Shown: piece after piece, positions 166 through 32,482 of the stretch
How positions within the stretch are numbered: the stretch's first letter is position 1
Layout of the letters: the number at the start of each line of letters is the position of its first letter
Assembly: GCA_020723855.1 (NCBI GenBank)
Contig: DYIB01000001.1
Location: 1 to 62,407, forward strand
Reading direction: 5' to 3'
DNA from: Uliginosibacterium gangwonense
GTDB taxonomy: Bacteria > Pseudomonadota > Gammaproteobacteria > Burkholderiales > Rhodocyclaceae
Length of the DNA stretch: 62,407 nt
Position numbers and translations under genes: made by a program
The notes under the pieces: model-generated
Told to the model about the DNA's origin: nothing
Databases searched by the model: none
Seen by the model: the letters and a program-made list of their open reading frames with translations, nothing else

Positions 166-1308
166 TCACTTGAGCAGGCGCCACTCGCCGTTCTCCACGC
201 GCACCAGCACGCGCGCGCGCTCGTCCAGGCCGTTGTGGTTGGACGGGCTCATGTTGTATACGCCGTGGGTGCCGATGACGTTCCTGGTGTTCTCCAGGGC
301 GTCGCGCAGTGCCGCGCGGAACTCGGGCGTGCCCGGCCTGGCCTTCTTCAGAGCGGCGGGCACGGCCGCGCCCAGCAGCGCGACGGCGTCGTGGCTGTAG
401 CCGGCGAAGGCGTTGCGGCTGCCGGCGCCGAAGGCGGCCTCGTAGCGCTTGGTGAACTCCAGGGAGACGGCCTTGGTGGGGAACTCCGCCGGCAGCTCCT
501 CGGGAACGATCAGGGCGCCGGTGGGGGCGATGGCGCCCTCGACGTTCTTCTTGCCGGTCTGGATGAAGGCCAGGTTGACCGTGCCGTGGTTGTGGTAGAT
601 GGGGCCCTTGTAGCCGCGCTCCGCCAGGGCGATGTGGGGTGTCGCGCCGGGGGAGCCGGAACCGCCCACCACCACGGCGTCCGGGTTGGCCGCCATCACC
701 TTCAGCACCTGGCCGGTGACGCTGGTGTCGGCGCGCCCATAGCGCTCGTTGGTGACCACCTTGATGCCGGCGGCCGGGGTGAGCGACATGAGTGCGTTAT
801 AGACGAGATCGCCCCAGGTGTCGGAGAAGCCGATGTAGCCCACGGTTTTGATGCCCTTGGCCTTCATGTGGTCCACCACGGCGCTCATCATCAGCTCGGT
901 GGTCTGGGGTACGATGAAAGTCCAGTGGGCGCGCTCGGGCGCCAGGGGCGGCACCGGCGTCAGGGCGATCATGGGCGTCCTGCTTTCCGCCGCCACCTGG
1001 GTCATGGCCGCCGCCGAGGGCACGCCGTTGGAGCCCATGATGACGTCGGCCTTGTCCTCGGTGACGAACTTGCGCGCGTTCTTGGCGGCGTTGTCGGGCT
1101 TGGACTCGTCATCGAGAATGATGTACTTGACCGGCTCGCCGCCCAGGGTCTTGGGCAGGAGCTGGAAGGCATTCTTGTAGGGGATGCCCAGCGACGAGCC
1201 CGGCCCGGTGGTGCCCAGGGACACGCCGACGGTGATCTCGGCGCGGGCGGCGGGAACGGCGACAAACGCCGCGACGGCCAGGGCGGCGAACAGTGGTGTG
1301 CGCTTCAT
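166..1308 (-). CDS. ABC transporter periplasmic substrate-binding protein (Leu/Ile/Val-binding-protein family); probable uptake component for the catabolic operon
   Basis: 380 aa. Signal peptide ending AVPAARA/EI, then type I binding-protein stretches (VGVSLGTTGPGSSLG, ILDDESKPDNA). Last gene of the co-directional operon. Confidence 0.85.
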   Translation of the reverse strand: MKRTPLFAALAVAAFVAVPAARAEITVGVSLGTTGPGSSLGIPYKNAFQLLPKTLGGEPVKYIILDDESKPDNAAKNARKFVTEDKADVIMGSNGVPSAAAMTQVAAESRTPMIALTPVPPLAPERAHWTFIVPQTTELMMSAVVDHMKAKGIKTVGYIGFSDTWGDLVYNALMSLTPAAGIKVVTNERYGRADTSVTGQVLKVMAANPDAVVVGGSGSPGATPHIALAERGYKGPIYHNHGTVNLAFIQTGKKNVEGAIAPTGALIVPEELPAEFPTKAVSLEFTKRYEAAFGAGSRNAFAGYSHDAVALLGAAVPAALKKARPGTPEFRAALRDALENTRNVIGTHGVYNMSPSNHNGLDERARVLVRVENGEWRLLK

Positions 1309-1335
1309 TGCTCCTCCTCCGATCGATGGACTGCG

Positions 1336-2331
1336 TTAATCAAGCGCTGCCGGGTGCAGCAACCCCAGATGCCTGAGCATGCCCAGCATCCGACCCAGCG
1401 TCTCCTTCTTGTAGGCGGCCACGTCCACGCCGCTGAAATCATGGAATCCCCTGCCGTCGCGCAGGCCGTTGCGGCCCTCGCGCATGTGGCGGTCCACGAT
1501 GGGCGGCGAGGCATAGCGCTCGTCGCCCAGGGCTTGGGCCAGGTAGCGGCTGGCGTAATAGAGGATGTCGTTGCCGCCGAAGTCGATGAACTCCACCACG
1601 CCCATGTTGGCGTAGCGGAAGCCCAGCCCGTAGCGGGTGGCGCGGTCGATGTCCGCGGCGCTGGCCACACCCTGCTCGATCATGCGCGCCGCCTCGTTCA
1701 TGATCAGGGATTGCAGCCGCGGCACGATGTAGCCGGGGGCGGCGGCGCACAGCACGGGCACCTTGCCGATGCGCTCCAGCAGGCCCTTGAGGGCGTCCAC
1801 GGCGGCCGGCGCCGTGCCCCCGTGGGGCGACAGCTCCACCAGCGGGATGACGTGGGCGGGGTTGAGCCAGTGGGCGTTGAGGAAGCGCCCGGGGTGGGGC
1901 ACCAGCTCGGCCAACCGGGTGACCAGGAAGGTGGATGTGGTCGAGGCGAGCAGGGCCTCGGGCCGCATGTGGGCGGCGGCGAAGGCGAAGGCGCCGCGCT
2001 TGGCCTCCATCACTTCCGGCACGCCCTCGAACACCGCGTCGGCGCGCGCCAGGGCGGCCGGCGCCGCCTCGCGCGCGGCGAAGCGGATGCGCTGCACGAT
2101 GCGCGGCCGCAGGGCGTCGTCGAAGGCGCCCCATTCGGCCATGGCGGCGAGCGAAGCGTCGATCTCGGCCAGCGCCTGGCGCTCCAGCGCCCGGGCCTCG
2201 GCGGCGGCGCGCGGCTTGATGTCCACCAGCCACACTTCATGGCCGGCATGGGCGAAGGCCGTGGCGATGCCCCGGCCCATGCGGCCGGCGCCGAGGGCGG
2301 CGATGGTCTCTTTGGCGCGCGACGCTGTCAT
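1336..2331 (-). CDS. 3-hydroxyacyl-CoA dehydrogenase (NAD-dependent)
   Basis: N-terminal Rossmann motif GAGRMGRG; family core NAHWLNPAHVIPLVEL and PGYIVPRL. The ATG at 2329-2331 overlaps the upstream stop as ATGA. The 662-aa ORF in the track is an upstream over-extension. Confidence 0.85.
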   Translation of the reverse strand: MTASRAKETIAALGAGRMGRGIATAFAHAGHEVWLVDIKPRAAAEARALERQALAEIDASLAAMAEWGAFDDALRPRIVQRIRFAAREAAPAALARADAVFEGVPEVMEAKRGAFAFAAAHMRPEALLASTTSTFLVTRLAELVPHPGRFLNAHWLNPAHVIPLVELSPHGGTAPAAVDALKGLLERIGKVPVLCAAAPGYIVPRLQSLIMNEAARMIEQGVASAADIDRATRYGLGFRYANMGVVEFIDFGGNDILYYASRYLAQALGDERYASPPIVDRHMREGRNGLRDGRGFHDFSGVDVAAYKKETLGRMLGMLRHLGLLHPAALD

Positions 2332-3407
2332 GGTGCCAGCCCCTCCCGCAACAGCCGCCTCATACCACCGCGATCCAGCCCTGCCAGCCCCAGCGCTCCC
2401 AGGGTGCGCGGGCCGCGCGTCAGGTCCTCGCCCACCATGGCGCCGGCGATGGCCAGCAGGCCGCGCGCCACCGGACAGGGCACGCCGGCCCAATCCGCCA
2501 CCGACACCAGGAAGGCCAGGCCGTAGGCCACGTCCTCGCGCATGTAGCGGTGGGTCTTCAGGTCGATGTGCTCGCGCCAGTCGCCGCTGTCCACCAGCTT
2601 GTCGTGGGCATTGCCGTACATCCAGCGGTCGCCGGTGTAGTGGTCGGCCAGGGGGAAGTGGGGCGGCCCGTAGCCCAGGGCCTCCCGCAGCGCCATGCGC
2701 TCGCCGTCGAGGGCGTCGGTGACGCGCCGGATGGCCGGCTGGGTGCCCTCGTTGTGGATGTCCCAGCGCTCGAAGTGCTCCAGGGGTCCCGCGTTCATGA
2801 GGATGAGGGGCGGATGGATCACCGGTCCGGCATTCATCAGCGCGCCGGACAAGGCGTCCTCCACCGGCTCCACGGCGGGATAGGCGCGGGCGATGACTTG
2901 CAGCGCATGCCCGCTGGCGGCGGCGGGGAACACGCCCGTGGGCAGGCGCGTGGCGCGGGTGGTGATGGCCACCTCCGCCGGCCCGTGCTTGCGCGCGAGA
3001 TAGGGCAGGGTGCCGGTCTCGGCGAAGGCCACCGCCGCCCGGCTGCCGGCGGCGCGTACCGTCCGGGCCATGACATAGGCGCCGAAGGTGCCGGGCGGCA
3101 GGAACACCACCTGGCCGTCCTCGAGATGAGGCGCCAGGGCGTGGGCGATGTCCACCTGGGCGCAGGCCGGCGTCGGGATCAGGATCAGCTCGGCGCCGCG
3201 CACCGCCGCCTCCAGGTTGCCGGTGGCGAGCGCAATGGGCACCTGGTGCCGGCCTCGGTAGTCCTTGAGGGTGATGTATCCCGTGGTCATCACCGGCGCC
3301 AGGGCCGCCGCGTCCCGGCGCCACAGCCGGACTTCGTGCCCGAGCTGGGACAGATCCGCGGCGGCGGCGTAACAGCCGTGTCCGCCGCCTAGCACGGCGA
3401 TGCGCAT
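2328..3407 (-). CDS. NAD(P)-dependent octopine/nopaline (opine) dehydrogenase-family protein; step in the pathway unknown
   Basis: 359 aa. MRIAVLGGGHGCYAAA Rossmann start, with length and C-terminal region typical of the opine dehydrogenase fold. Confidence 0.7.
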   Translation of the reverse strand: MRIAVLGGGHGCYAAAADLSQLGHEVRLWRRDAAALAPVMTTGYITLKDYRGRHQVPIALATGNLEAAVRGAELILIPTPACAQVDIAHALAPHLEDGQVVFLPPGTFGAYVMARTVRAAGSRAAVAFAETGTLPYLARKHGPAEVAITTRATRLPTGVFPAAASGHALQVIARAYPAVEPVEDALSGALMNAGPVIHPPLILMNAGPLEHFERWDIHNEGTQPAIRRVTDALDGERMALREALGYGPPHFPLADHYTGDRWMYGNAHDKLVDSGDWREHIDLKTHRYMREDVAYGLAFLVSVADWAGVPCPVARGLLAIAGAMVGEDLTRGPRTLGALGLAGLDRGGMRRLLREGLAP

Positions 3408-3461: not shown

Positions 3462-4649
3462 TCATGCGATGACGCCGGCGCCCGCCAGGGCATCCACTTC
3501 TTCCGCCCCATAGCCCGCCTCGGCGAGCACGCGCCGGGTGTCGGCCCCGTACTTGGGCGGGAAGGGCAGTTCGGTGCGCGCGCCGGCCACATCCACGGCC
3601 ATGGGCTGCATGTGCACCGGCTTGCCGTCGGGCATGACCGTGCGCGTGAGCTTGTCGATCAACTGCGGCAGCTCGCGCACCTGGCGGATGTCGAGGATGC
3701 GGGTGGCGGGAATGGTGGCGGCGCGCAGGTCCGCCAGGATCTCCTCGGACGAGTACTGGCTGGTCACCGCCGCCATGTCCCGGTGGATCGCCGCCCGCTC
3801 CCGGTGGCGCCCTTCGTTGGTTGCCCGCACCTGGTTGGCGACGCAGGCGAACTTGGGGATGGCCGTGAGGCGCTGCCATTGCACGTCGCTGCCGATGGCC
3901 AGGTACACATGGCCGTCCTTGGTGGGGTAGACGTTGGTGGGGATGAACTTGCGGTGCTCGTTGCCGGCGCGGGTGATCTCGCCCGGCTGGCAGCCGAAAT
4001 CGATCAGGGGCAGCACGGTGATCAGCCAGGAGGCGGCGGCCTGGAGCATGGACACGTGGATCTCCCGGCCGCGCCCGGTCTCCTGGCGCTCGAGCAGGGC
4101 GAGCATCACGTTGGCATAGACCTCGTCGCCCGCCTTCAGATCTATGACGGGAATGCCGGTGAGCATGGGCGGCCCGTCCGGGTCGCCTGTGACCTCCATG
4201 TAGCCGGCCATGGCCTGGATCACGGGATCGTAGCCCGGCGCCTCCGGCACCTGGGGCCCCATGGCCGAGATCCCGGCCCAGATCAGGTCGGGCTTGACTG
4301 CCATGAGGGTGGCGGGGGCTATGCCCAGCTGCCGGTAGCGCGAGGGCACGGTGTTGCAGCAGAACACGTCCACGTCCAGCGCCCGGATCAGGCGCTTCAG
4401 CACCTCCTGGCCGCGGGGATCCTTGAGGTTCAGGGCGATCGCCTCCTTGCCCACGTTGGGGGCGACGAAGTAGCTGCGCCGGTCGTCGTCGGCAACACGC
4501 GAGCCGATGTAGCGGTTGGGGTCGCCGGGCAGGCCGCCGCCGGGAGTGGACTCGATGCGGATCACGCGCCAGCCGAGCTGGGCGAAGCGCAGGGTGGCGT
4601 AGGGCAGGGACAGGGCCTGCTCCAGGGAAAGGACGGTACGGCGTTTCAT
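3462..4649 (-). CDS. Family III (CaiB/BaiF) CoA-transferase; candidate arylsuccinate CoA-transferase (IaaL-like)
   Basis: 395 aa. N-terminal [21 protein letters not shown]...GDPNRY pattern typical of class III CoA-transferases. Function inferred from context. Confidence 0.85.
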
Positions 4650-4773: not shown

Positions 4774-7149
4774 TCACGCTGCTTCCTTTCGCGCCGCATG
4801 CAACGCCCGATACACCTTCTCCGGCGTGAACGGCAGCTCGAAGATGCGCACGCCGGTGGCGTTGCAGATGGCGTTGGCGGTGGCGGCGGCGATGCAGATG
4901 GCGGGCGCTTCGCCCACGCCCTTGGCGCCCTGGGGGCCTTCGCCGTCCATGGTCTCGATGAAGTGCACCTCCATCTCCGGGATTTCCGGCGCGGTCACCA
5001 GCTTGTAGTCGCGGAAGGCGGGGTTTTTCACCACGCCGTTTTCCACCATCAGCTCCTCGGTCAGTGCATAGCCCTGGCCCATGACGATACCGCCCTCGAT
5101 CTGGCCCTCTATCCCCAGGCGGTTGAGCACGCGGCCCACGTCGTGGGCGCCGGTGACCTTGAGCAGACGCACGATGCCCGTGTCCGTATCCACCTCCACT
5201 TCCACCACCTGGGTGGCCCAGGCATAGGCGGCGGAGACGTCGCCCTTGAACTGCTTGTCCTGGTGCTTGCTGGGCGGCTCGTAGTAGAAGCTGGTCATCA
5301 CCAGCTCGGCCTTGTCGTTGAAGTGGAGCTGGCGCAGCAGCTTGGGCAGGCTCATGACCATCTTGCCGGTCCTGGCCTCGACGATGTGGCCGGCGCGCAG
5401 GTCCAGCTCCTCGGGCGCCATCTGCGCCACGCCGGCGGCCGCCGCCAGGATCTTGGCGCGCGCCTTGCGCGCCGCGCCGATGGCCGAGTTGCCGGCGATG
5501 AAGGTGGTGCGGCTGGCGTGCACGCCCACGTCCCAGGGGGTGATCTCCGTGTCGTTGTTGATGACGCGCACCGCCGACAGGGGCACGCCCAGTTCCTCGC
5601 ACACGAGTTGGGCCAGCACCGTCTCCGAGCCCTGGCCGATTTCCGAGGCGCCGGTGAGCAGGGTCACGGCGCCGAAGTCGTCCATCTTGAGGATGGTGCC
5701 GCAGCCGTCGGAGGGATAAATCTTGGCGCCGCCCCCCACGTGCAGCATGGAGGCCATGCCGATGCCGCGCTTGAAGCGGCCCGGCCTGGCCTGCTCGGCC
5801 TGGTAGCGTCGGCGCTTGGCGCTGTAGTCGCTGGCGCGGGCCGCGGTGGTGAGGCAGTCCTTGAAGCCGCAGCTCTTGAAGTGCATGCCCTGGGGCGTGA
5901 CCTCGCCCGGATCCTGGGCGTTCTTCAGGCGGAACTCCAGCGGGTCCATGCCGATGGCTTCCGCCAGCATGTCCATGTGGCTCTCCACGGCGAAGGTCGC
6001 CTGCAGGTTGCCGTAGCCGCGGAACGAGCCGGCATAGGGGTTGTTGGTATAGACCGCCTTGGTGTGGTACTTGCAGTGGGACACGCGATAGAGCGACGAG
6101 ATGGTCTGCATCATGACGAAGGGCGTGGTGGCGCCCCAGGAGGTGTAGGCGCCGTTGTCGTGCAGGGTCTCGACGGTGCGGAAGGTCAGCGTGCCGTCCT
6201 TCCTGCAGCCGGAGCGCAGGGTGAGGATCACCGGCTGGCGCGTGGGCGAGGCGAGGAACTCCTCTTCCCGGGTGAATACCAGCTTCACCGGCCGGCGCGT
6301 GGCCTTGGCCAGGAACACGGTGATGGGCTCGAAGGGATAGATGTCCAGCTTGGAGCCGAAGCCGCCGCCGATGGGCGGCTGGATGATGCGGATGCGCGCC
6401 GGGTCCATGTCGAGGATCTCGGCGAACTCGCGCTTGTGCAGGAAGGGCACCTGGGTGTTGGAATACATCAGCAGGTTGCCCGAGGGATCGAACTCGGCGA
6501 TGATGCCCGACACCCCCATGCAGCAGTGGGTGACGTAGTGCAGCCGGAAGGTATGCTCCAGCACCACGTCCGACTCGCGCTCGCCTTGCGCCACGTCGCC
6601 CTGCCCATAGTCGAACGTCATTGCGATGTTGTCGGGCTTGCCGGCGTAGGCCACCGGCATGCCGGGCTTGAGGTGCTCGGGCTTGCCGTCGGCGCCGTGG
6701 GGCTCCGGGTGGATCAGGGGCGCGCCCGGCTTGAGCGCCTCGCGCGGGTCGGTCAGCACCGGCAGGTCCTCGTACTCCACCTCGATCAGCTTCAGCGCCG
6801 CCTCCGCGATCTCCGGCGTCTCGGCCGCCACCGCGGCGATCTCGTCGCGCAGGCTGCGCACCCGGTCGGTCTTCAGGGGCAGGTGGTCCTTGGCCACGCC
6901 GATGGGACGCTGGTAGGGCACGTCCGCGGCGGTGATGACCGCATGCACGCCGGGCAGCGCCCTGGCCTTGCTGGTGTCGATCTTCTTGATCAGGGCATGC
7001 ACCCTTGAGGAGCGCAGGATCTTGCCGTAGAGCTGGCCGGGAACGTTGAGGTCGTGGATGTAGCGCGTCTTGCCGCCGGCTTTCTCGGGCGCGTCCAGCT
7101 TGGTGATGCGCTTGCCGATCAGGGTGTCTTTCTCGATCACTTCCGGCAT
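4774..7149 (-). CDS. Xanthine dehydrogenase/aldehyde oxidoreductase-family molybdopterin-binding large subunit
   Basis: 791 aa. N-terminal GKRITKLDAPEKAGGKTRYIHDL and overall layout typical of XDH/CoxL/HcrA large subunits. Follows the cognate FAD and 2Fe-2S subunit genes. Confidence 0.9.
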   Translation of the reverse strand: MPEVIEKDTLIGKRITKLDAPEKAGGKTRYIHDLNVPGQLYGKILRSSRVHALIKKIDTSKARALPGVHAVITAADVPYQRPIGVAKDHLPLKTDRVRSLRDEIAAVAAETPEIAEAALKLIEVEYEDLPVLTDPREALKPGAPLIHPEPHGADGKPEHLKPGMPVAYAGKPDNIAMTFDYGQGDVAQGERESDVVLEHTFRLHYVTHCCMGVSGIIAEFDPSGNLLMYSNTQVPFLHKREFAEILDMDPARIRIIQPPIGGGFGSKLDIYPFEPITVFLAKATRRPVKLVFTREEEFLASPTRQPVILTLRSGCRKDGTLTFRTVETLHDNGAYTSWGATTPFVMMQTISSLYRVSHCKYHTKAVYTNNPYAGSFRGYGNLQATFAVESHMDMLAEAIGMDPLEFRLKNAQDPGEVTPQGMHFKSCGFKDCLTTAARASDYSAKRRRYQAEQARPGRFKRGIGMASMLHVGGGAKIYPSDGCGTILKMDDFGAVTLLTGASEIGQGSETVLAQLVCEELGVPLSAVRVINNDTEITPWDVGVHASRTTFIAGNSAIGAARKARAKILAAAAGVAQMAPEELDLRAGHIVEARTGKMVMSLPKLLRQLHFNDKAELVMTSFYYEPPSKHQDKQFKGDVSAAYAWATQVVEVEVDTDTGIVRLLKVTGAHDVGRVLNRLGIEGQIEGGIVMGQGYALTEELMVENGVVKNPAFRDYKLVTAPEIPEMEVHFIETMDGEGPQGAKGVGEAPAICIAAATANAICNATGVRIFELPFTPEKVYRALHAARKEAA

Positions 7150-7153
7150 GGCG

Positions 7154-7604
<451 letters not shown>

Positions 7605-7627
<23 letters not shown>

Positions 7628-8477
7628 TTTCGAGCATCCTCTTGGTCATGTTGTGGACCAGCTCCTTGCGGTACCAGGCCGAGGCCCGCACGTCGGAGAT
7701 GGGGTTGATTTCGTCCCGGGCCGCGAGCGCGGCGGCGGCAATCGTCTCGGGAGTGAGGCGCTTGCCCTCCAATGCCTTCTCGGTGGCGGTGCCGCGCAGC
7801 GGCGTGGGCGCAACGGCGCCGAAGGCCACCCGCACCTGGGACAGGCGGCCGTCGCGCAGCACGCCCGCCAGGCCGATGGAGATGGCCGAGATGTCCAGGG
7901 CCGGGCGGGTGCCGAACTTGTAGAAGCGGGCGATAGAGCCCGGCGGCGGCACGGGAATGCGCACCGCCGCCAGCAGCTCGTTGGGCTCGCGCCGGGTGCG
8001 GCCCGGGCCGGTGAAGAACTGGGCCAGGGGCAGGGTGCGGGTGCGCAGGCTGCCGTTGGGCTTGGATACCAGCTCCGCCTGGGCATCGAGCACCAGCAGG
8101 GGCACCAGGGTGTCGCCGGCGGGGGAGGCGTTGCAGATGTTGCCGCCCAGGGTGCCGGCGTTGCGGATCTGGCCGCTGGCGAAATGGTCGCCGGCTTCCG
8201 CCAGCACCGGGCAGTGGCGCCGCACCAGCTCGGCTGCCATGAGCTCGCTGATGGTGGCGAGCGCCCCGATGCGCAGCCAGCCGCCGTCCAGGGCGATGCC
8301 CTTGAGCTCCGGGATGCGCCGGATGTTCATCAGGGTGGGCTTGAACTTCACCCGCCCGGCGTGGCTCTGGGGCATGAGGTCGGTGCCCCCGGCGAGGATG
8401 GTCGCCTCGCCCGCGGCCAGCAACTCCACGGCCTGCTCCAGGCTGGTGGGGGCTATGTAATTTTCGATCGCTGTCAT
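7605..8477 (-). CDS. FAD-binding medium subunit of the molybdenum hydroxylase (CoxM/XdhB type)
   Basis: 290 aa. AGGTDLMP and GTLGGNICNASPAGD motifs. Only two Cys in the whole protein. Its 3' end overlaps the next gene by 23 nt. Confidence 0.85.
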
Positions 8478-8610: not shown

Positions 8611-10224
<1,614 letters not shown>

Positions 10225-22951: not shown

Positions 22952-22967
22952 TGAAGTCTCCTAGGAA

Positions 22968-24107: not shown

Positions 24108-24132
24108 ATGTCTTCTCCACGCGTGGTTGCAT

Positions 24133-24158: not shown

Positions 24159-24928
24159 CTGTTCTTCCAAACGGGCTTGCGCTTTTCCATGAAGGAGTGC
24201 AGCCCCTCTACGGCGTCCTCGGTGGCCATCAGTTCCTTCAGGTAGATCTGCTCCACGGTGAACAGCGCCTCGAAGAAGGGCTTGCCGGCGGCCTCGCGCA
24301 CCGCCTTCTTGGTATACATGAGCGCCACCTGCGACAGGGACAGGAACTGGTTCACGAAGGTCTGGGTGTCCTCGTGGAAGGTCTCGCGCGCGAACACCCG
24401 GTTGATCAGACCCAGCTGCTGGGCTTCCGCAGCGCCGATGAGGCCGCCGCCCAGCAGCAGCTCCATCACCTTGGGCAGGGGCAGCATCTTGGGCATGAGG
24501 ATGGCGGCGATGGGCGGGAACACGCCCAGCTTGATCTCCGGCTGGCCGATCTTGGCGTCCGCCGTGGCCACCACCATGTCGCAGGCGATGGCCAGCTCGC
24601 AGCCACCGCCCATGGCCGAGCCGTTGAGGGCCGCCACGGTGGGCAGGGGGAACACCATCAGGCGCTTGAGGATGCCGTGGAACACCTCGATCATCTGCAC
24701 CACCTTGTCGGGGGTGTGGTCCATGACGTCCACACCGGCGGAGAACACCTTGTCGCCGCTGGCGGTGATCATCAGCACCTTGGCCGTCTGCTCCTTCGCC
24801 GCTTGGTCCAGGGCCAGGTTGAGCTCCTCCATCAGGGCGATGTCGAGCACGTTGTAGGGCGGGCGGTTGATGGTCACGGTGACGAGGCCGTCCGCAACGC
24901 CGTAGCTGAGAAACTTGAAGTCAGGCAT
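24155..24928 (-). CDS. bzdW: Cyclohexa-1,5-diene-1-carbonyl-CoA hydratase (crotonase family; Dch/BzdW)
   Basis: 257 aa enoyl-CoA hydratase fold (ITASGDKVFSAGVD, GGGCELA). Position between bzdV-like and had. Confidence 0.85.
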   Translation of the reverse strand: MPDFKFLSYGVADGLVTVTINRPPYNVLDIALMEELNLALDQAAKEQTAKVLMITASGDKVFSAGVDVMDHTPDKVVQMIEVFHGILKRLMVFPLPTVAALNGSAMGGGCELAIACDMVVATADAKIGQPEIKLGVFPPIAAILMPKMLPLPKVMELLLGGGLIGAAEAQQLGLINRVFARETFHEDTQTFVNQFLSLSQVALMYTKKAVREAAGKPFFEALFTVEQIYLKELMATEDAVEGLHSFMEKRKPVWKNR

Positions 24929-24964
24929 GGCTCCCCTTTCGTATGGCCGCCGCCGGCGGCCGCA

Positions 24965-27499
24965 TCAGAACAAGTCGTCCAGTTCGTCCACGCCCACTCC
25001 CGGCGGCATCGAACCGTATTGCTGCATGTAGGCCTGCACGAGTTGGTTCTCGCGCTGGCTGAAGAAGGGTGCTTCCTCCACGACGAAGTAGGGCGCGATG
25101 TCGGCCTTGTCGAGCATGGCCTGCAGGCCCTCGCGCAGGTTCTCCACGCCCTTGATCGCCAGCACCTTCTTGTCCGCGTCCAGCAGTTGATAGACGCCCG
25201 CTTCGGTGGTGACGCCGGCGACGTTGGCGGCGTTCAGTTCCAGGCAGGCCTCGGGCGGCAGCACCATGTCCTCGATCTTCGCCGCCAGGTTGCACTTGAG
25301 GCAGCGCAGCGCCTCCGCCCGTGCCGTAGCCTCGTCGAAGCCCAGCTCCACCTCGTTCCAGTTGTTGCGCCGGGCCGGATCGATGAAGATGGGATGGAAG
25401 CGGCGCTTCCGGTTGAAGCCGTCCTCGCGGCCGATGGAAGGGTCGGTATCCCAGTCGGGCAGCAGCTTCTCCTCGATGTTGCCGTCCCCGCCCAGTTGCC
25501 TGTCCATGGCGGCGGCGGCGATGCGGCCCTGGGCCACCGACTCGATCAGGGTGGAGGGCCCCAGCACGCAGTCGCCGCCGGCATAGACACCGGGCCGGCT
25601 GGTGAGCAGGGTGTCGGCGCGCACCTGGATGCGCCCCTTCTCGTCCGTCTGCACGCCGAAGCCGGAGAAGATCTCCGAGTGCTGGCCCACGGCGGCGATC
25701 ACCAGGTCCACGTCCTCGGCGAACTCGCTGCCCGGCACTTCCACCGGACGGCGGCGGCCCGAGGCATCGGGCTCGGCCAGCTCCATGCGCGCGTAGGTGA
25801 TCTTGAGGCGCGAGGTACCGTTGCCGTTGAGCTCGATCTTCTTGGGCGCCAGCAGGAAGCGCAGGTTCACGCCCTCGTCGATACAGCCCTGGATCTCGTC
25901 CTCGCGCGCCGGCATCTCGGCCCGCGTGCGGCGATAGACCATATCCACCACTTCGGCGCCCAGGCGCCGGGAGCTGCGGCAGTTGTCGGTGGCGACATTG
26001 CCGCCGCCGATCACCGCCACGCGCTTGCCGATGACGATGCCGGTTTCCGGGCTGCCCACCATGCCCATGGTGGCGGCGCGCAGGAAGGTGGGGCTGTCGA
26101 CGACGTTGGGCAGGTCGTCGCCGGGAATGCCCAGCTTGTCGCCGCCCTGAGCGCCGATGCCGATGAAGACTGCTTCATAACCCTGGACGAACAACGGGTC
26201 GAGGGAATCCACGCGGGTGTTGAAGCGGAACTCCACGCCCAGCTTCTCCACTTCCGCCACCTCCCGGTCGATCACGTCCAGCGGCACCCGGTAGGACGGG
26301 ATGCCGTAGCGGGCCATGCCGCCGGCGGCAGGCAGGGCATCGAACACGGTGACGCTGTGGCCCTTCTTGGCCAGGTAGTAGGCCACCGTCAGCCCGGCGG
26401 GGCCGGCGCCGATCACCGCCGCCTTCCTGCCCGTGGGCGGCAGCTGATACGAGTACTGGCGCCACAAGCCCGTGTCGTTGTCGGCGGCGATGCGCTTGAG
26501 GCTGCGGATGGAGATCGGCTCGTCCAGGTACTTGCGCCGGCAGGCCGACTCGCAAGGGCTGAAACAGGCGCGGCCGAGGATGCCGGGGAAGGGCAGCTTC
26601 TCCCGCACCACGGCAGTCGCTTCGGAATACTTGCCCAGCCCCACCAGCTGCACGTAGCGCGGCACGTCGATGCCCGCCGGACAGGTGTGCTTGCAGGGTA
26701 CCTGGGTTTCCTCCAGGCGCGCCACATCCAGAGTGCGGTCCAGCAGGGCGCCGGTGGGACAGACCGTGACACAGGCGCTGCAGAACTTGCAGCCGGACTC
26801 GATGAGGGTCGGGGCGATGGGGCCCACCCAGGTACGGCCGTCGGTGTTCTTGACTTCCAGACAGCCCACGCCGCGCACCTCGTTGCACGCCACCAGGCAG
26901 CGGCGGCAGTCGATGCACAGGTTGTAGTCGCGGTCGTAGAACGGCTCGTCCTTGATGACGGGAAGCTGCACGTGCTTGTAGGCCGGCGTGGTATTGGGAA
27001 TGCCCACGTAGTCGGATACCTTGCGCAGCTCGCAGGAATTGAAGATGGAACAGCAGCGCTGCTCCACCGGGTTGCCGTAGGAGCAGGTGGTGCGGCTGCA
27101 GCCTTCGCGCTGGGGACAGGTGAGGCACACGTGCGGATGGTTGCCGAGAATGCGCGCCAGATGCTTCTGCCGCTCCTTCCGGAGCGCCGGTGTATCGGTG
27201 GCGACCGACATGCCGTTGGCGACCGGAATCGAACAGGCGGTGAGCAGCCCGTCGGCGCCTGCGATCTCCACCAGGCACAGCTTGCAGCCGGCGTCCAGGC
27301 CGCCGCGGGCGCAGGCCGGCGGCAGATCGGGATGGGCGCACAGGGCGGGAATATAGATGCCGGCGGCGGCCGCCGCCGACAGCACCGAGGCGCCGGCCGG
27401 AGCTGCCACGGTCTTGCCGTCGATCACGAATTTGACCATCGGCCCCGCCGTTTCTCCGGCGGCGGGCTTCTTGTACCAGCGTACGAGTTGTGTCTCCAT
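24965..27499 (-). CDS. bzdV: Fe-S flavoprotein fusion: NuoG-type 2Fe-2S/4Fe-4S N-domain plus GltD-type NAD(P)H oxidoreductase; putative ferredoxin-regenerating enzyme (BzdV-like)
   Basis: 844 aa. VKFVIDGKTV...CKLCLVEI (2Fe-2S), CIDCRRCLVAC and CKFCSACVTVCP (4Fe-4S), GAGPAGLTVAYYLAKKGH (FAD/NAD). About 130 unassigned residues end in the acidic tail DELDDLF. An alternative ATG lies at 27439. Confidence 0.75.
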   Translation of the reverse strand: METQLVRWYKKPAAGETAGPMVKFVIDGKTVAAPAGASVLSAAAAAGIYIPALCAHPDLPPACARGGLDAGCKLCLVEIAGADGLLTACSIPVANGMSVATDTPALRKERQKHLARILGNHPHVCLTCPQREGCSRTTCSYGNPVEQRCCSIFNSCELRKVSDYVGIPNTTPAYKHVQLPVIKDEPFYDRDYNLCIDCRRCLVACNEVRGVGCLEVKNTDGRTWVGPIAPTLIESGCKFCSACVTVCPTGALLDRTLDVARLEETQVPCKHTCPAGIDVPRYVQLVGLGKYSEATAVVREKLPFPGILGRACFSPCESACRRKYLDEPISIRSLKRIAADNDTGLWRQYSYQLPPTGRKAAVIGAGPAGLTVAYYLAKKGHSVTVFDALPAAGGMARYGIPSYRVPLDVIDREVAEVEKLGVEFRFNTRVDSLDPLFVQGYEAVFIGIGAQGGDKLGIPGDDLPNVVDSPTFLRAATMGMVGSPETGIVIGKRVAVIGGGNVATDNCRSSRRLGAEVVDMVYRRTRAEMPAREDEIQGCIDEGVNLRFLLAPKKIELNGNGTSRLKITYARMELAEPDASGRRRPVEVPGSEFAEDVDLVIAAVGQHSEIFSGFGVQTDEKGRIQVRADTLLTSRPGVYAGGDCVLGPSTLIESVAQGRIAAAAMDRQLGGDGNIEEKLLPDWDTDPSIGREDGFNRKRRFHPIFIDPARRNNWNEVELGFDEATARAEALRCLKCNLAAKIEDMVLPPEACLELNAANVAGVTTEAGVYQLLDADKKVLAIKGVENLREGLQAMLDKADIAPYFVVEEAPFFSQRENQLVQAYMQQYGSMPPGVGVDELDDLF

Positions 27500-27575
27500 G
27501 GCTTACCGTCGCTGCCGTTCATATGGAAGGATAATGCAATATAGTGAACTAGCAGGTAATAGAATGCATGTGGCG

Positions 27576-27617
27576 ATTCTAGGTAGCAATACTCGTGATC
27601 CACTTGACCTAGATCAA
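27576..27617 (-). promoter_or_regulatory. Predicted class II FNR-type promoter for the bzdV-W-X-Y operon
   Basis: FNR-like box TTGACCTAGATCAA (27604-27617, centre 27610.5). Minus-strand -10 TAGAAT at 27576-27581, which falls at -12..-7 if the box is centred at -41.5. Confidence 0.55.
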
Positions 27618-27718
27618 GTCACGCCCAAAAAACCTTGTCACGTGCAGGGAGGTTGCCGGAGGCCGAGCACCGCTGGCGGGGGCGCTTAGGCAGGAAATTC
27701 GGAAAAGTCCGTTCTTTC

Positions 27719-27760
27719 TTGATCTAAATCAAACCACGAACCGAGTGTGGTTTTTAAAAT
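27719..27760 (+). promoter_or_regulatory. Predicted class II FNR-type promoter for bzdNOPQM
   Basis: Perfect FNR consensus TTGATCTAAATCAA (27719-27732, centre 27725.5). The -10 TAAAAT at 27755-27760 places the box at -41.5 from a start site near 27767. Confidence 0.55.
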
Positions 27761-27764
27761 CGGC

Positions 27765-27783
27765 TGCACTGATCTATAGTGCA
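27765..27783. promoter_or_regulatory. Palindromic operator candidate TGCACT-N7-AGTGCA spanning the predicted bzdN start site
   Basis: 6-bp perfect inverted arms, read directly. TGCA-containing palindromes are the known BzdR operator type in Azoarcus. No cognate regulator gene lies in the window. Confidence 0.4.
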
Positions 27784-27860
27784 TTAGTATTGATAATAGT
27801 GAATTATAATACAGTATCGAATCCGGAGCGAGTTAACCCAGCCGATAGGGGATTAAGAGA

Positions 27861-28997
27861 ATGAGCGGATTGTTCGACCAGTTCAAAACGTGGTACGAAA
27901 AGCGCCACGATTATGCGCGGGCCTGGAAGGCGCGCACCGGCGGCCAGGTGGTGGCCACCATGTGCACCTATACGCCCGAGGAAATCCTGATCGCCGCCGG
28001 CATGCTGCCGGTGCGCGTGCTGGGAGCCCATGAGCCCCAGAACGTGACCGAGCCCCATATCTTCGGCATGTTCTGCCCCTTCTGCCGCGACTCGCTCGCC
28101 CAGGGGCTGCTCGGCCGCTTCGACTACGCCGAGGGGATCACCCTGACGCAATCCTGTATCCAGTATCGCCAGGCCTTCAATTCCTGGCGCGCCCACGTGC
28201 CGACGGTCAAGTGGGATTACTACCTGCCCATGCCCAACGAAGTGCAGTCGCGCTTCGCACGCGCCCAGCACTATGCGGAAGTCAAGAAATTCCGCCAGTT
28301 CATCGAGGGCGTGATCGGCCGGCCCCTGCCGGATGCGGAGCTGAAGCGCGGCATCGAGATCGTCAACGAGAACCGGCGCCTGCTGCGCGAGCTGTTCGAG
28401 TACCGCAAGGAGACCAACCCGCGCGTGACCGGCGTGGAGGCGCTGTATGCCTCCATCACCGCCCAGTTCGTGGACAAGGAAGAGCACAACAAGGAACTGA
28501 AGCGCGTGCTGGCCGAGCTGCCCAAGCGGTCGAACGACCGGCCGGAGGGCATCCGCTTCATGACCATCGGCTCGGAGAACGACGACGTGGCCTTCATGGC
28601 CATGGTGGAGTCGGTCGGCGCGACCATCGTCATCGACGACCAGTGCTCGGGCACCCGCTACTTCTGGAACGAGGCGCGCGTCCAGGACGACGCAATCGCC
28701 ACCATCGCCGACCGCTACTGCGAGCGCCCGGCCTGCCCGACCAAGGACTACCCGGCCCATACCCGTTTCGACCACGTGCTGAAACTGGCCAAGGACTACA
28801 ACGCCCGCGCCGCCATTTTCCTGCAGCAGAAGTTCTGTGATCCGCACGAGGGCGACTACCCGGATCTGAAGCGGCACCTGGAGGCGAACGGCGTGCCCAC
28901 GCTATTCTTGGAGTTCGATATCACGAATCCGCTGGGACCGTTCCGTATCCGCGTCGAGGCCTTCCTCGAAACCCTGCGCGAAGAAGAGCTGTTCTGA
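27861..28997 (+). CDS. bzdN: Benzoyl-CoA reductase (class I, ATP-dependent, Azoarcus type) gamma subunit
   Basis: 378 aa. BcrC/HgdB-family sequence ([30 protein letters not shown]). First gene of an N-O-P-Q-ferredoxin order. Confidence 0.9.
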
Positions 28998-29017
28998 CGA
29001 GATTACAAGGAGCAAAG

Positions 29018-30334
29018 ATGGCACCGAACAAGTACCCCACCGAGCCGCTCAAGTGCTGGAAGAAGGCCAAGGAGCTGCGCGAGCAGTATTACATCAACTA
29101 CGCACGCGCCAAGGACAACGGCGGCCTGCGCTGGTCCGGCTCGGCCTGGGCCCTGGACGCGATCCCCGCCGGCCTGGGCCGGGACGTGTACTCCCTGACC
29201 GGCGAGCCCTACGGCGCCACCATCGCCGTGGACAAGAAGTTCAACAAGGAGTGCCAGGACGCGGCCGAATCCTACGGCTTCGCGCGCGACCTGTGCGCCT
29301 ACATGCGCACCTACTGGGGCTCGATCATTCTCAACAAGTATCCCTTCGGCGGCGAGTTTCCCAAGCCGGATTTCAACTTCCAGACCCAGATCTGCTGTTC
29401 CCACGCCAAATGGTACCAGGCCGCGGCCAGGCTGGAGCACGGCACGCCGACGTTCTTCATCGACGTGTCGGTCGGGCCCTACAAGGAACTCACCGAGGAG
29501 CGTCTGGACTACGTCACCAACCAGGGCCTGGAAGCCTGCGAATGGCTGGAGAAGACCACCGGCCGCAAGTTCGACGACGGGCTGTTCATCGAGGCGGTGA
29601 AGAACGAGATGCGCTCCACCTCCCTGTGGGCCGCCATCTGCGCCGAGAACAAGGCCGTGCCGGCGCCCCTGGACGAGAAGACCATGTACTCGCTGTACGT
29701 GCTGGCGACGCTGTCCAAGTCGTCCAAGTGGTGCGCCGACTTCTACCAGGAGTGCCTGGACGAGGTGCGCGACCGGGTCAAGCGCGGCATCGCCGCCGTG
29801 CCCAACGAGCGCTGCCGTGTCATGTCCGACACCCAGCCGCCCTGGGGCTTCCTCAAGATCTTCCGCTACCTGGAGGAGTTCGGCGCCGTCTCCATCGGCT
29901 CCCTCTACACCTTCGGCCTGGAAGGCATCTGGGAAACCAAGCCCGACGGCACCTGGGGCCCGCGCACCGTGCCCTGGGAGTCCGGGATCGAGATGCGCAC
30001 CCGCGAGCAGGCGATGCGCCTCTATTGTGACTGGAACCTGTCCAAGCCCCAGTGGCAGCACTTCTACGATCCGCGCCTGAAGACCGAGATGATGAAGACC
30101 ATCGTCAAGGAGTGGAAGGTGGACGGCGTGATGCTGCATCTCAACCGCGGCTGCGAGGGTCTCAGCCTGGGCATCATGGAAAACCGCCTGGGGCTGGCCG
30201 CCGCCGGCATCCCGGTGATGACCTTCGAGGGCAACATGGGCGACGAGCGCGAGTTCGACCTGGTGCGCACGCAGAATCGGGTCGATTCCTTCATGGAGAC
30301 CCTGGGCCTGAAGCGCGACTTCGCCCATGCCTAG
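29018..30334 (+). CDS. bzdO: Benzoyl-CoA reductase beta subunit
   Basis: 438 aa. BcrB/HgdA family ([22 protein letters not shown]). AAGGAG SD. Confidence 0.9.
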
Positions 30335-30352
30335 TTTTACAGGAGGAAAGAA

Positions 30353-31162
30353 ATGATTACCGCTGGCATCGACATGGGCTCCCGCACCGTCAAGGTGGTG
30401 TTCCTGGAAGAGCTCAAGGTGGACGGCGCCCCGCAACTGAAATGGGGCGTCAAAGGAAAACACATCATGTTCCCGGAGGATCTTGATGCCGATCAGGCCG
30501 CCGAGAAAGCTTTCAACGAGGCCCTGCAGGCGTCGGGTATCGCGCGCGAGCAGGTCAGGCGTGTCGTCGCCACCGGCGCCGGCCGCAAGCAGGTGAAGTT
30601 TGCCCATGAGGACGTCACCGAGGTGTCCGCCGGAGCCAAAGGCACGGTGTTCATGTGCCCGAGCGCCCGCACCGTGATCGACGTGGGTGCGGAGGAAGGG
30701 CGCGGCATCAAGACGGACGCTGACGGCAAGGTGGTGGATTTCGCCGGCAACGAGAAGTGCGCCGCAGGCGCCGGTGCCTTCGCCGAGTCCATGTCGCGCG
30801 CGCTGCAGTTGTCCCTGAAGGAATTCGGCGAAGCCAGCCTGCGCTCCGACAAGACCATCCCGATGAACGCGCAATGCACGGTGTTTGCCGAATCGGAGGT
30901 GGTGTCGCTGATCCACTCCTCGACGCCGAAGGAGGATATCGCAAAAGCGGTGCTCGACGCCGTGGCCAGCCGCGTGACGGCGATGGCGCGGCGCGTGGGT
31001 ATCGAGGGTGAGGTCGCCCTGATCGGCGGCATGGTGCACAACGTCGGCTTCGTGCAGTCGCTGAAAACGGCGCTCGGCGTGGATAACATGCTGTTGCCCG
31101 ATATGCCCGAGTATGTTTCCGCCCTAGGCGCCGCGCTGATCGCGACCGAAGGCAAAGCCTAA
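30353..31162 (+). CDS. bzdP: Benzoyl-CoA reductase delta subunit (BcrD/HgdC-type ATPase)
   Basis: 269 aa. MITAGIDMGSRTVK acetate/sugar-kinase fold. Cluster-bridging Cys contexts EKCAAGAGAF and AQCTVFAESE. Confidence 0.9.
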   Translation: MITAGIDMGSRTVKVVFLEELKVDGAPQLKWGVKGKHIMFPEDLDADQAAEKAFNEALQASGIAREQVRRVVATGAGRKQVKFAHEDVTEVSAGAKGTVFMCPSARTVIDVGAEEGRGIKTDADGKVVDFAGNEKCAAGAGAFAESMSRALQLSLKEFGEASLRSDKTIPMNAQCTVFAESEVVSLIHSSTPKEDIAKAVLDAVASRVTAMARRVGIEGEVALIGGMVHNVGFVQSLKTALGVDNMLLPDMPEYVSALGAALIATEGKA

Positions 31163-31178
31163 CCCGTAGGAGACCGCA

Positions 31179-32081
31179 ATGGCTGAGACCGCAGGTGAAA
31201 AGAAGGAATACTGGCGCTGGCAGGAGAACTGCTGGATCGATGAGTCCAAGAATTGGCGCGACGCCAAGATCATTACCGCGGGTATCGACGTCGGTTCGGT
31301 GAGCTCCCAGGCGGTGATCGTGTGCGACGGCGGGCTGTACGGCTTCAACAGCATGCGCACCGGCAACAACAGCCCCGACTCGGCGAAGAACGCCATCAAT
31401 GGCGTACTGGAAAAGTCGGGCATGAAGCTGGAGGACATTCATTACGTCGTCGGCACCGGCTACGGCCGGGTGAACGTGCCCTTCGCCCACAAGGCCATCA
31501 CCGAGATCGCCTGTCATGCGCGCGGCGCCAACTATATGGGCGGAAGCCAGATCCGCACGATACTCGACATGGGCGGCCAGGACTGCAAGGCCATCCACTG
31601 CGACGAGAAGGGCAAGGTCACCAACTTCCTGATGAACGACAAGTGCGCCGCCGGCACCGGGCGCGGCATGGAGGTGATCGCCGACCTGATGCAGATCCCC
31701 ATCGCCGAGCTGGGGCCGCGCTCATTTGATGTCGATGAGGAGCCGCCGGCGGTCTCCTCGACGTGCGTGGTGTTCGCCAAGTCGGAAGCGCTCGCCCTGC
31801 TCAAGGCCGGCTACTCCAAGAACAAGGTGATCGCCGCCTACTGCCAGGCCATGGCCGAGCGCGTGGTCTCCCTGCTGGAGCGCATCGGCGTGGAGAAGGA
31901 GTTCTTCATCACCGGCGGCATCGCCAAGAACCCGGGCGTGGTGAAGCGCATCGAGCGGCTGCTGGGCCTGCAGGCGGTGCAGACCAAGTACGACAGCCAG
32001 ATCGCCGGCGCGCTGGGCGCCGCGCTGTTCGGCTACACCCTGGTGCAGAAGCAGGGCGTGCCCAACAAGGCGGCCGCCTAG
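31179..32081 (+). CDS. bzdQ: Benzoyl-CoA reductase alpha subunit (ATPase)
   Basis: 300 aa. IITAGIDVGSVSSQ, DKCAAGTGRG and STCVVFAKSE. Has an N-terminal extension of about 30 aa. Confidence 0.9.
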   Translation: MAETAGEKKEYWRWQENCWIDESKNWRDAKIITAGIDVGSVSSQAVIVCDGGLYGFNSMRTGNNSPDSAKNAINGVLEKSGMKLEDIHYVVGTGYGRVNVPFAHKAITEIACHARGANYMGGSQIRTILDMGGQDCKAIHCDEKGKVTNFLMNDKCAAGTGRGMEVIADLMQIPIAELGPRSFDVDEEPPAVSSTCVVFAKSEALALLKAGYSKNKVIAAYCQAMAERVVSLLERIGVEKEFFITGGIAKNPGVVKRIERLLGLQAVQTKYDSQIAGALGAALFGYTLVQKQGVPNKAAA

Positions 32082-32197
32082 GACGCCCGAAAGATCCCGA
32101 AGCTCCGGCCCGTGCCGGTCATCCTCTCCCGCCGAGGCGGGCCGGAGTCGAGGGGTCCCCGAATTCCACGCCCGTTGCGGGTGAAAGGAAACGAGCC

Positions 32198-32482
32198 ATG
32201 ATCGCAAACTACGGCTACAAGGACGGCTCCGGCGAGTATTACATTAGCATAGACACCGACAAGTGCATCGTCTGCGAAGCCGGCCGCGCCTGTCTCGGTG
32301 CCTGTCCCAAGGGCATGTTCGAGATCATCAGCGACGACTACGACGACGAGGTGGCGGCGGTGAAGCAGCAGTTCCGCCGCTCGCTCGCCTTCGATTGCGC
32401 CCAGTGCAAGCCGGCCGGCGGCTATACCACCCTGCCGTGCGTCTCCGCCTGCACCCCTGGCGCCATCAAGCATTCCTGGTAG
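32198..32482 (+). CDS. bzdM: 2x[4Fe-4S] ferredoxin, electron donor to benzoyl-CoA reductase
   Basis: 94 aa starting at MIANYGYKDG (ATG 32198, GAAAGGAAA upstream). Cys motifs CIVCEAGRACLGACP and CAQC...CVSACTP. Confidence 0.8.
   Translation: MIANYGYKDGSGEYYISIDTDKCIVCEAGRACLGACPKGMFEIISDDYDDEVAAVKQQFRRSLAFDCAQCKPAGGYTTLPCVSACTPGAIKHSW

Follow-up and report, generated by a model that had tools for sequence, protein, structure and literature searches.

A predicted anaerobic indoleacetate (iaa) operon, its candidate IaaR operator and the neighbouring bzd genes on a metagenome-derived contig

Gene content and identity of the iaa operon

We examined a 62,407-nucleotide stretch of DNA (hereafter the window; contig DYIB01000001.1 of GenBank assembly GCA_020723855.1, assigned to Uliginosibacterium gangwonense) whose left part carries genes for the predicted anaerobic degradation of indole-3-acetate (IAA), the iaa operon, followed by a flavoenzyme gene and by bzd genes of the benzoyl-coenzyme A (benzoyl-CoA) pathway. 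The source is the metagenome-assembled genome (MAG) of an uncultured bacterium; the same stretch is present on the 187-kb metagenome contig JGI Ga0484001_0000191, and likewise in NCBI MAG GCA_040752375.1. Genes were found from a listing of open reading frames (ORFs) combined with a codon-position GC filter, domains were assigned with Pfam, and family membership was tested at the NCBIfam equivalog cut-offs; NCBIfam holds no iaa-specific equivalogs, hence for the iaa genes these cut-offs were usable solely to exclude paralogue families. Orthology was assessed against an Aromatoleum iaa locus (L010), congeneric with A. aromaticum EbN1; the IaaF encoded there has the same sequence as in Azoarcus sp. 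CIB.

The minus strand carries an unbroken run of 15 genes from 19362 down to 166, in agreement with the initial annotation of this DNA, with intergenic gaps of -23 to 133 bp, two ATGA overlaps (iaaC/iaaE, and the genes for an opine-dehydrogenase-like and a 3HCDH protein), and a plausible ribosome-binding site before each gene. Independent gene calls on the source contig returned the identical 15 products, and with the Pfam assignments they bear out the enzyme set that had been claimed. Terminator-like sites within the run were not above chance (6 found, 8.8 expected). The first gene, iaaR (18664-19362; 64% amino-acid identity to L010, the reference for the other percentages in this paragraph), encodes a GntR/FCD-family regulator, and is followed by iaaA for a thiolase (17439-18650; 78%), iaaB for a 512-aa AMP-forming CoA ligase of the indoleacetate-CoA ligase type (15826-17364; 62%; a longer ORF reaching 17595 was not adopted), and iaaC and iaaE for hydantoinase A-type (13680-15797; 82%) and B-type (11992-13683; 91%) subunits. 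Next are iaaF, for an acyl-CoA dehydrogenase of the decarboxylating benzylmalonyl-CoA dehydrogenase type with a GGG motif (10726-11868; 88%; PMC8360864), iaaG, for a B12-binding mutase subunit in which the DxHxxG motif reads DGHDQG (10301-10699; 80%), and iaaH, for the mutase large subunit (MM_CoA_mutase; 8611-10224; 87%). The FAD (7605-8477; 73%), 2Fe-2S (7154-7627; 66%) and Mo (4774-7149; 78%) subunits of a xanthine-dehydrogenase-family Mo hydroxylase are encoded by three genes within 4774-8477, which by position are iaaI, iaaJ and iaaK. Downstream of these are iaaL, for a family III CoA-transferase of the phenylsuccinyl-CoA transferase type (3462-4649; 71%), genes for the opine-dehydrogenase-like (octopine-dehydrogenase-like) protein (2328-3407) and a 331-aa protein of the 3-hydroxyacyl-CoA dehydrogenase family (3HCDH; 1336-2331), both without a counterpart in L010, and, at the iaaM position, a gene for a periplasmic binding protein (Peripla_BP_6; 166-1308; 40%).

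The run had been described as a 15-gene operon. All 15 genes are in the window, but the number is an artefact of the window edge, by which the operon is truncated; on the source contig (L007 11432-21143, left of window position 1) it continues with genes for an ABC permease, a permease-ATPase fusion and a 696-aa FadB-like (iaaP-type) protein, so that the unit has at least 18 genes. The FadB-like gene is 71% identical to a FadB-like gene of Thauera aromatica that carries an iaa operator (see below) upstream. Past it on L007 are genes for an alpha/beta hydrolase, a second binding protein, and a 1162-aa indolepyruvate:ferredoxin-oxidoreductase-like product that could form indoleacetyl-CoA straight from indolepyruvate.

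The published locus for anaerobic IAA degradation is iaaABCDEFGHIJKLMPQR, with 2-aminobenzoyl-CoA as the end product of the pathway (PMC9613470). IaaB is indoleacetate-CoA ligase, IaaL phenylsuccinyl-CoA transferase, IaaGH the mutase, IaaF the decarboxylating benzylmalonyl-CoA dehydrogenase, IaaM a binding protein, and IaaQ and IaaR have regulatory roles, whereas iaaD is truncated and not functional (PMC8360864). At L010 the order is FadB-like gene and TetR gene (both on the opposite strand), then the genes for the GntR regulator, thiolase, ligase, hydantoinases A and B, acyl-CoA dehydrogenase, B12 subunit, mutase, FAD, FeS and Mo subunits, CoA-transferase and binding protein, or in iaa letters P(-) Q(-) R A B C E F G H I J K L M. 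Thirteen of the 15 window genes are colinear with this locus at 62-91% amino-acid identity (binding protein, 40%), and the window holds the full iaa enzyme set of ligase, hydantoinase A/B, Mo hydroxylase, CoA-transferase, split B12 mutase, acyl-CoA dehydrogenase and thiolase, along with the binding protein and the GntR regulator.

The product of 10726-11868 has GGG instead of YEG, within the sequence RFTLIGGGTSEILK. Replacement of the acyl-CoA dehydrogenase YEG by GGG marks the IaaF subclass, all of whose members have their genes in iaa clusters (PMC8360864); the forward primer for EbN1 iaaF from the same paper matches the start of the window gene at 19 of 22 bases. The nearest database relatives of the window IaaF (85-97% identity) include Aromatoleum proteins named benzylmalonyl-CoA dehydrogenase in UniRef. 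With NCBIfam, the Mo enzyme scored below the cut-off for the alpha subunit of 4-hydroxybenzoyl-CoA reductase (603 against 995) and also below that for xanthine dehydrogenase, the mutase below that for methylmalonyl-CoA mutase (524 against 876), and the hydantoinase pair below those for the caprolactamase CapA (686 against 1000) and the acetophenone carboxylase ApcC (351 against 1500). All three enzymes thus fall outside the non-iaa paralogue families with which, as the initial annotation had cautioned, they might have grouped.

For a survey of such clusters, species-representative genomes were scanned with the window thiolase and the best 80 loci (79-98% identity) were examined. Colinear iaa genes were found in almost all of them, and about 78 further species genomes, among the matches listed, have this gene order; the loci are spread over Rhodocyclales, Sulfuritalea, Aromatoleum, Burkholderiales and further betaproteobacterial MAGs. 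We take the window operon to be an orthologue of the known iaa pathway operon, widespread in Betaproteobacteria, because of the 13 colinear genes at 62-91% identity and the GGG motif of IaaF. The earlier proposal of an anaerobic indoleacetate operon is thus upheld by colinearity with Aromatoleum, by IaaF and by the exclusion of paralogues.

A candidate IaaR operator and the flavoenzyme gene behind its second copy

The 8-mer ATACAGTA occurs three times in the window, each time between genes, where 0.02 occurrences are expected. Two of these belong to candidate IaaR-type operators read on the minus strand: ATGTATACAGTACAC at 19413-19427, 51-65 nt upstream of iaaR, and ATGTATACAGTATCC at 21735-21749, 53-67 nt upstream of the flavoenzyme gene, where it overlaps a putative -10 sequence. 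The two sites have the 13-mer AATGTATACAGTA in common and are of one design, a -35-like hexamer followed after 17 nt by a TACAGT that lies inside the motif (TTTACG-N17-TACAGT before iaaR; TTGACG-N17-TACAGT before the flavoenzyme gene). Most of the loci that were examined have the ATACAGTA core about 45-57 nt before iaaR, many of them in the longer form TGTATACAGTA, and the Aromatoleum version of the operator is the perfect palindrome TACTGTATACAGTA. The sequence (A/G)TGTATACAGTATCC is present exactly twice per locus of about 21 kb, once before the flavoenzyme gene and once before iaaR, in all 14 genomes, among the matches listed, that have the flavoenzyme gene there. Within the 2.1 Mb of fetched loci the operator 11-mer occurs 56 times, and 55 of these occurrences are at most 300 nt upstream of iaaR (37), the flavoenzyme gene (14) or a FadB-like iaaP (4). 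A literature search found no description of an IaaR operator, and the candidate reported here is new. It is most likely bound by IaaR, which would act as a repressor of the operon through a palindromic operator (core TGTATACAGTA) overlapping the -10 sequence; the second copy would control the flavoenzyme gene.

This gene (19691-21682, minus strand) lies between the iaa and bzd blocks and encodes a 663-aa OYE-family protein with Oxidored_FMN and Pyr_redox_2 domains, a predicted FMN/[4Fe-4S]/FAD flavoenzyme placed by NCBIfam in the class of 2-naphthoyl-CoA reductase (NCR) and 2,4-dienoyl-CoA reductase. Its best solved relative is NCR (PDB 6qkg; 402 bits over the full length, NCR residues 14-670), with FadH at 246 bits. 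Orthologues of 76-89% identity are widespread, and include the A. aromaticum EbN1 protein annotated as "NADH oxidase NoxB-2" and a T. aromatica protein (86%).

We assign the gene to the predicted iaa regulon, and not to the bzd unit, because it has its own copy of the iaa operator upstream. It might instead be the last gene of the bzdVWXY unit, its product being an oxidase of the cyclohexa-1,5-dienoyl-CoA type that protects benzoyl-CoA reductase from oxygen and has no specific link with IAA. The gene is co-directional with bzdY and begins 141 bp downstream of it, its product is in the NCR/dienoyl-CoA reductase class, and T. aromatica, source of the 86% identical orthologue, reportedly has a dienoyl-CoA oxidase of this enzyme family. 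Membership of the bzd unit is at odds with the operator copy in all 14 genomes, with a hairpin (21773-21816) between bzdY and the flavoenzyme gene, and with the layout in other genomes: at two loci (L016, L023) the gene adjoins iaaR and about 7 kb of upstream sequence carries no bzd genes, and in T. aromatica the orthologue follows iaaP behind the same operator. At a further locus (L034) the gene also adjoins iaaR, with about 0.3 kb of upstream sequence, which is not informative on bzd. The designation bzdZ was rejected on the operator and synteny evidence, and the gene for the closest EbN1 homologue does not lie among bzd-type genes, as judged from the 22 kb around it. We regard such a dienoyl-CoA oxidase of the bzd unit as unlikely; an oxidase role is the main alternative, and the two views may both be partly true.

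The neighbourhoods of the orthologues suggest a substrate. Two further genomes have an orthologue with iaa-type genes within about 10 kb: T. aromatica, with iaaP and, about 9 kb away, an iaaM-like binding-protein gene where a convergent iaa cluster should begin; and a Rhodocyclaceae MAG, with a hydantoinase pair and a mutase gene. Orthologues in four genomes cluster with genes of the salicylyl-CoA 5-hydroxylase/oxidoreductase family (above cut-off), which we take to be the family of the Azoarcus evansii 2-aminobenzoyl-CoA monooxygenase/reductase, and with aryl-CoA ligases of the benzoate-CoA-ligase or DHB-AMP-ligase families; one Burkholderiales MAG has the monooxygenase half alone beside the orthologue. 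A RidA-like protein is encoded near the orthologue in Thauera and EbN1. A conserved protein of about 152 aa (128 aa in EbN1) accompanies it in EbN1, T. aromatica and three MAGs (L172-L176), and a Cys-rich protein of about 65 aa (CDxCGCRWFDR...CYECG) is present at four of these five loci, EbN1 being the exception; there is no Pfam hit on record for either small protein. None of these companions (monooxygenase, ligase, RidA-like, 152-aa and 65-aa proteins) is encoded in the window. The common theme of the neighbourhoods appears to be ortho-substituted benzoyl-CoA.

An ATP-independent "2-aminobenzoyl-CoA reductase (deaminating)" activity was reported long ago in A. evansii, and we know of no gene assigned to 2-aminobenzoyl-CoA reductase activity. 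A review describes the anaerobic conversion of anthranilate in A. evansii by a ligase and a "2-aminobenzoyl-CoA reductase" (PMC4539516). The flavoenzyme may process 2-aminobenzoyl-CoA, and is a reasonable candidate to do so; such a role fits because the predicted IaaR operator precedes the gene in the 14 genomes, because the nearest solved relative is an aryl-CoA reductase, and because of the genes beside the orthologues. That it is the missing enzyme which takes over 2-aminobenzoyl-CoA, with the ATP-independent deaminating reductase as its candidate role, we offer as a tentative proposal with the odds clearly against it. If true, the bzd/flavoenzyme/iaa arrangement would be a physical map of a metabolic hand-over.

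Separately, genes for XdhC/MeaB-like, XdhC_C and nucleotidyltransferase proteins follow the flavoenzyme gene in Aromatoleum (L172 12920-16530) and Thauera (L173 16209-19815); they presumably serve Mo-cofactor maturation for the iaa hydroxylase, and none is found in the window.

The bzd genes and their control region

The bzd set extends from 21824 to about 33892 and consists of two divergent units. Unit 1 (minus strand, 21824-27499) begins with a bzdV-like gene for an iron-sulfur flavoprotein oxidoreductase (24965-27499; NCBIfam), followed by a crotonase gene at the bzdW position (24155-24928), the product of which scored 173 with the dienoyl-CoA hydratase (Dch) model TIGR03189, below the cut-off of 292.5, then by bzdX/had (23040-24170; TIGR03201, 545 against a cut-off of 339) and bzdY/oah (21824-22951; TIGR03200, 613 against 464), after which comes the hairpin already mentioned. 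Unit 2 (plus strand, 27861-33892) comprises bzdN (27861-28997; TIGR03190, 764 against 454), bzdO (29018-30334; TIGR03191, 809 against 449), a bzdP-type activase gene (30353-31162), bzdQ (31179-32081; TIGR03192, 608 against 380), a bzdM-like gene for a two-cluster ferredoxin (32198-32482), and three genes that are bzdS, bzdT and bzdU by position only: a 93-aa ORF (32485-32766), a GNAT gene (32785-33240) and a PHP-protein gene (33245-33892). By these model scores the enzyme set for the conversion of benzoyl-CoA to 3-hydroxypimelyl-CoA is predicted to be present. Apart from the iaaB type, no CoA ligase is encoded anywhere in the window, and neither is a regulator of the XRE/shikimate-kinase type (BzdR). 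The initial annotation had named a complete Azoarcus-type bzd set without bzdA and bzdR, and as to the presence of a bzd set and these two absences it was right.

At the edge of the bzd block a 225-aa ORF (33908-34585, minus strand) has a response-regulator receiver domain at residues 83-205, and its N-terminal 80 residues resemble the end of a histidine-kinase ATPase domain; it may be a fused or truncated two-component gene. The genes from about 34.6 kb rightwards are of the housekeeping kind (dapC/D/E-type, smc, zipA, ligA, typA, glnD, map, tsf, pyrH, frr, uppS, cdsA).

The 360-bp divergent control region (27500-27860) has two FNR-type boxes, TTGACCTAGATCAA at 27604-27617 and TTGATCTAAATCAA at 27719-27732, one toward each unit; both are conserved in relatives, and by their sequence they imply anaerobic activation of both units. 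TGCA palindromes are found at 27534-27549 and 27769-27784. The BoxR/BzdR consensus ATGCACTATAGTGCAT (PMC6449761) has two matches at 3 mismatches, both in this intergenic region (0.10 expected), which we regard as suggestive. The palindrome block TAGAATGCATTCTA and the blocks just named are conserved in ten syntenic relatives. From these elements bzd would be under oxygen control and probably under control responsive to benzoyl-CoA.

The third occurrence of the 8-mer mentioned above is a half-site, ATACAGTATCG, at 27809-27819 (within 27805-27819), immediately before bzdN. A TGCA box, ATATGCATTAT, stands at this position in each of the ten syntenic relatives, and a conserved iaa operator at the bzd promoter was rejected. 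The half-site may represent a lineage-specific change in the control of bzd, or it may be due to chance.

It had been suggested, from the absence of bzdA and bzdR, that the adjacent bzd set is a private ring-reduction module that serves solely the CoA ester made by the iaa operon. The two blocks are indeed neighbours in other genomes: the layout bzdN(-)/bzdVWXY/flavoenzyme/iaaR is present in 11 of 55 species genomes, the count being limited to those, among the matches listed, in which 5 kb of sequence or more precedes iaaA. The other 44 are without it, and in most iaa-bearing genomes bzd is located elsewhere; the adjacency is a clade trait. Among the 11 is Candidatus (Ca.) Desulfobacillus denitrificans (L040; AP021857, 1630064-1651263), the nearest relative of this layout with a complete genome, which is described as having one complete benzoyl-CoA module, the benzoate-CoA ligase badA and boxABC, with routes into benzoyl-CoA from benzoate, 4-hydroxybenzoate, phenylphosphate and other compounds (PMC8402940). 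In this organism, with the same layout, the module would serve several peripheral pathways. In some bacteria, moreover, the bzd and box routes share a single benzoate-CoA ligase and a single regulator (PMC6449761). Because ligase and regulator can be common to the two routes, because the adjacency is a clade trait with a multi-route module in Ca. D. denitrificans, and because bzd has FNR and TGCA sites of its own, the absence of bzdA and bzdR nearby is weak evidence for dedication. What stands at the bzd promoters is not a conserved iaa operator but a pair of FNR-type boxes with TGCA palindromes, of the kind typical of BzdR/BoxR control in response to benzoyl-CoA (PMC6449761), and the partial half-site before bzdN in the window lineage, which could be cited for a private module, gives way to the TGCA box in the relatives. 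A module private to the iaa product is thus very unlikely, and we conclude that the bzd genes are a general central pathway: they would be the organism's ATP-dependent benzoyl-CoA pathway under its own control sites, with the adjacency to iaa a clade-specific, supra-operonic clustering of a peripheral with the central route.

Proposed pathway and comparison with known systems

By homology to the Aromatoleum pathway, IAA would be imported by the binding-protein/ABC system and activated to indoleacetyl-CoA by IaaB. The initial annotation placed hydroxylation of the free acid first, an order that is outdated; in the current scheme the first step is formation of the CoA ester by IaaB (PMC8360864, Fig. 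1 legend). The Mo enzyme would then hydroxylate indoleacetyl-CoA at C2, the hydantoinase-like pair would open the lactam ring to give (2-aminophenyl)succinyl-CoA, and IaaL would move the CoA. The B12 mutase IaaGH is predicted to rearrange the skeleton to (2-aminobenzyl)malonyl-CoA, which IaaF would convert by oxidative decarboxylation to 2-aminocinnamoyl-CoA, and beta-oxidation by the FadB-like IaaP just outside the window and the thiolase IaaA would yield 2-aminobenzoyl-CoA and acetyl-CoA. The flavoenzyme would probably act where this route passes into the benzoyl-CoA pathway, either on 2-aminobenzoyl-CoA or on a cyclic dienoyl-CoA formed from it.

We consider this explanation as a whole (iaa orthologue, IaaR operator, flavoenzyme gene in the iaa regulon, general bzd pathway) to be probable. 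Several points weigh against it. The identities refer to the congeneric locus L010, whereas the enzymes characterised biochemically (IaaB, IaaL and IaaF) are those of EbN1; conservation is lowest for IaaB (62%) and the binding protein (40%), and the specificity of uptake and activation could differ; the opine-dehydrogenase-like/3HCDH cassette is without an assigned step; and the half-site before bzdN could give IaaR a lineage-specific input into bzd. The divergence of ligase and binding protein, the extra cassette, and the existence of two divergent Mo hydroxylase classes among iaa clusters could also be taken to favour a substrate other than IAA, either an N-heterocycle of the oxindole or skatole type, as had been entertained, or another arylacetate; this we hold to be highly improbable, as the catalytic core keeps the gene order of the Aromatoleum locus at 71-91% identity, IaaF carries the diagnostic GGG motif, the operator before iaaR is conserved between the window and Aromatoleum, and we infer from the published pathway (PMC8360864) that IaaL, IaaGH and IaaF need the succinyl-type side chain that derives from the C3 carboxymethyl group, which skatole and oxindole are without.

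The cassette was surveyed by a metagenome scan with the opine-dehydrogenase-like protein, and its neighbours were viewed in 80 loci, where they were named by sequence reading or by BLAST similarity to window proteins and not by Pfam. It occupies the same position within the iaa clusters L093, L094, L101, L109, L124 and L139. Most loci with the cassette are outside any iaa context, the neighbours being mainly ABC (NitT/TauT-like) or TRAP transporters, a MarR-like gene, a CoA ligase and a UbiD-like gene; this distribution shows the pair to be a mobile module. The hydratase and dehydrogenase for beta-oxidation would already be supplied by the FadB-like gene.

Two further observations concern the cassette and the hydroxylase. 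At L106 (about 5084), L140 and L166 the cassette shares an operon with genes for a UbiD-like decarboxylase and a TRAP transporter. The exact iaa operator 11-mer precedes this operon at L106, a hint that a related aromatic acid may have a second, IaaR-like regulon of its own. At nine loci (L041, L042, L064, L065, L071, L077, L087, L093, L094) the FAD subunit of the Mo hydroxylase is about 48-51% identical to that of the window, as against 65-74% elsewhere, and the rest of the cluster is still 80-90% identical, which suggests hydroxylase replacement.

The operon itself is an ordinary instance of a published pathway, and its recognition as such adds little; what is new here, from sequence, is the candidate IaaR operator and the predicted place of the NCR-like flavoenzyme gene in the iaa regulon. 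A defined candidate operator permits regulon prediction and the design of auxin biosensors, and by placing the flavoenzyme in the regulon it makes the fate of 2-aminobenzoyl-CoA in anoxic auxin and anthranilate degradation testable. The iaa clusters are far commoner in uncultured Betaproteobacteria than the few studied strains suggest. For Ca. D. denitrificans, aromatic compounds of unknown origin were described as the main electron donors, and indole compounds are nowhere mentioned in that paper (PMC8402940); IAA or tryptophan-derived indoles are now concrete candidates.

Compared with the iaa locus of A. aromaticum EbN1 and A. evansii KB740, the window has in common the gene set and order from iaaR through iaaM, the GGG motif of IaaF, and a GntR-type iaaR with the same operator core upstream. 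It differs in being without the iaaD remnant and without the TetR-type iaaQ, and in the place of iaaP, which is at the distal end of the same operon here and divergently upstream in Aromatoleum. ABC permease and ATPase genes are included in the operon, the opine-dehydrogenase-like/3HCDH cassette is inserted between iaaL and iaaM, and the binding protein, at just 40% identity, is a distant relative. Directly upstream is the OYE-family gene with its own iaa operator, and bzd directly adjoins.

The bzd cluster of Azoarcus sp. CIB (bzdR and bzdNOPQMSTUVWXYZA) has in common with the window N, O, Q, had and oah at equivalog level, the ferredoxin and the BzdV-like oxidoreductase, and, as candidate sites in the control region, TGCA palindromes and FNR-type boxes. 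In Azoarcus sp. CIB these genes are in a single operon (PMC5658619, PMC6449761), whereas the window has two divergent units (NOPQM with three ORFs, and VWXY), is without bzdR and bzdA nearby, and has at the bzdW position a crotonase that scores below the Dch cut-off.

The flavoenzyme has the full-length three-domain FMN/[4Fe-4S]/FAD architecture in common with NCR (PDB 6qkg), Escherichia coli FadH and the T. aromatica dienoyl-CoA oxidase. To NCR it is distantly related (402 bits over the full length), and its context is one of 2-aminobenzoyl-CoA, salicylyl-CoA and iaa genes and not of naphthalene genes. In the clusters for ortho-substituted benzoyl-CoA of T. aromatica, the Rhodocyclaceae MAG and the Burkholderiales MAG, the orthologue stands with aryl-CoA ligases; the window keeps the flavoenzyme gene alone, behind the candidate iaa operator.

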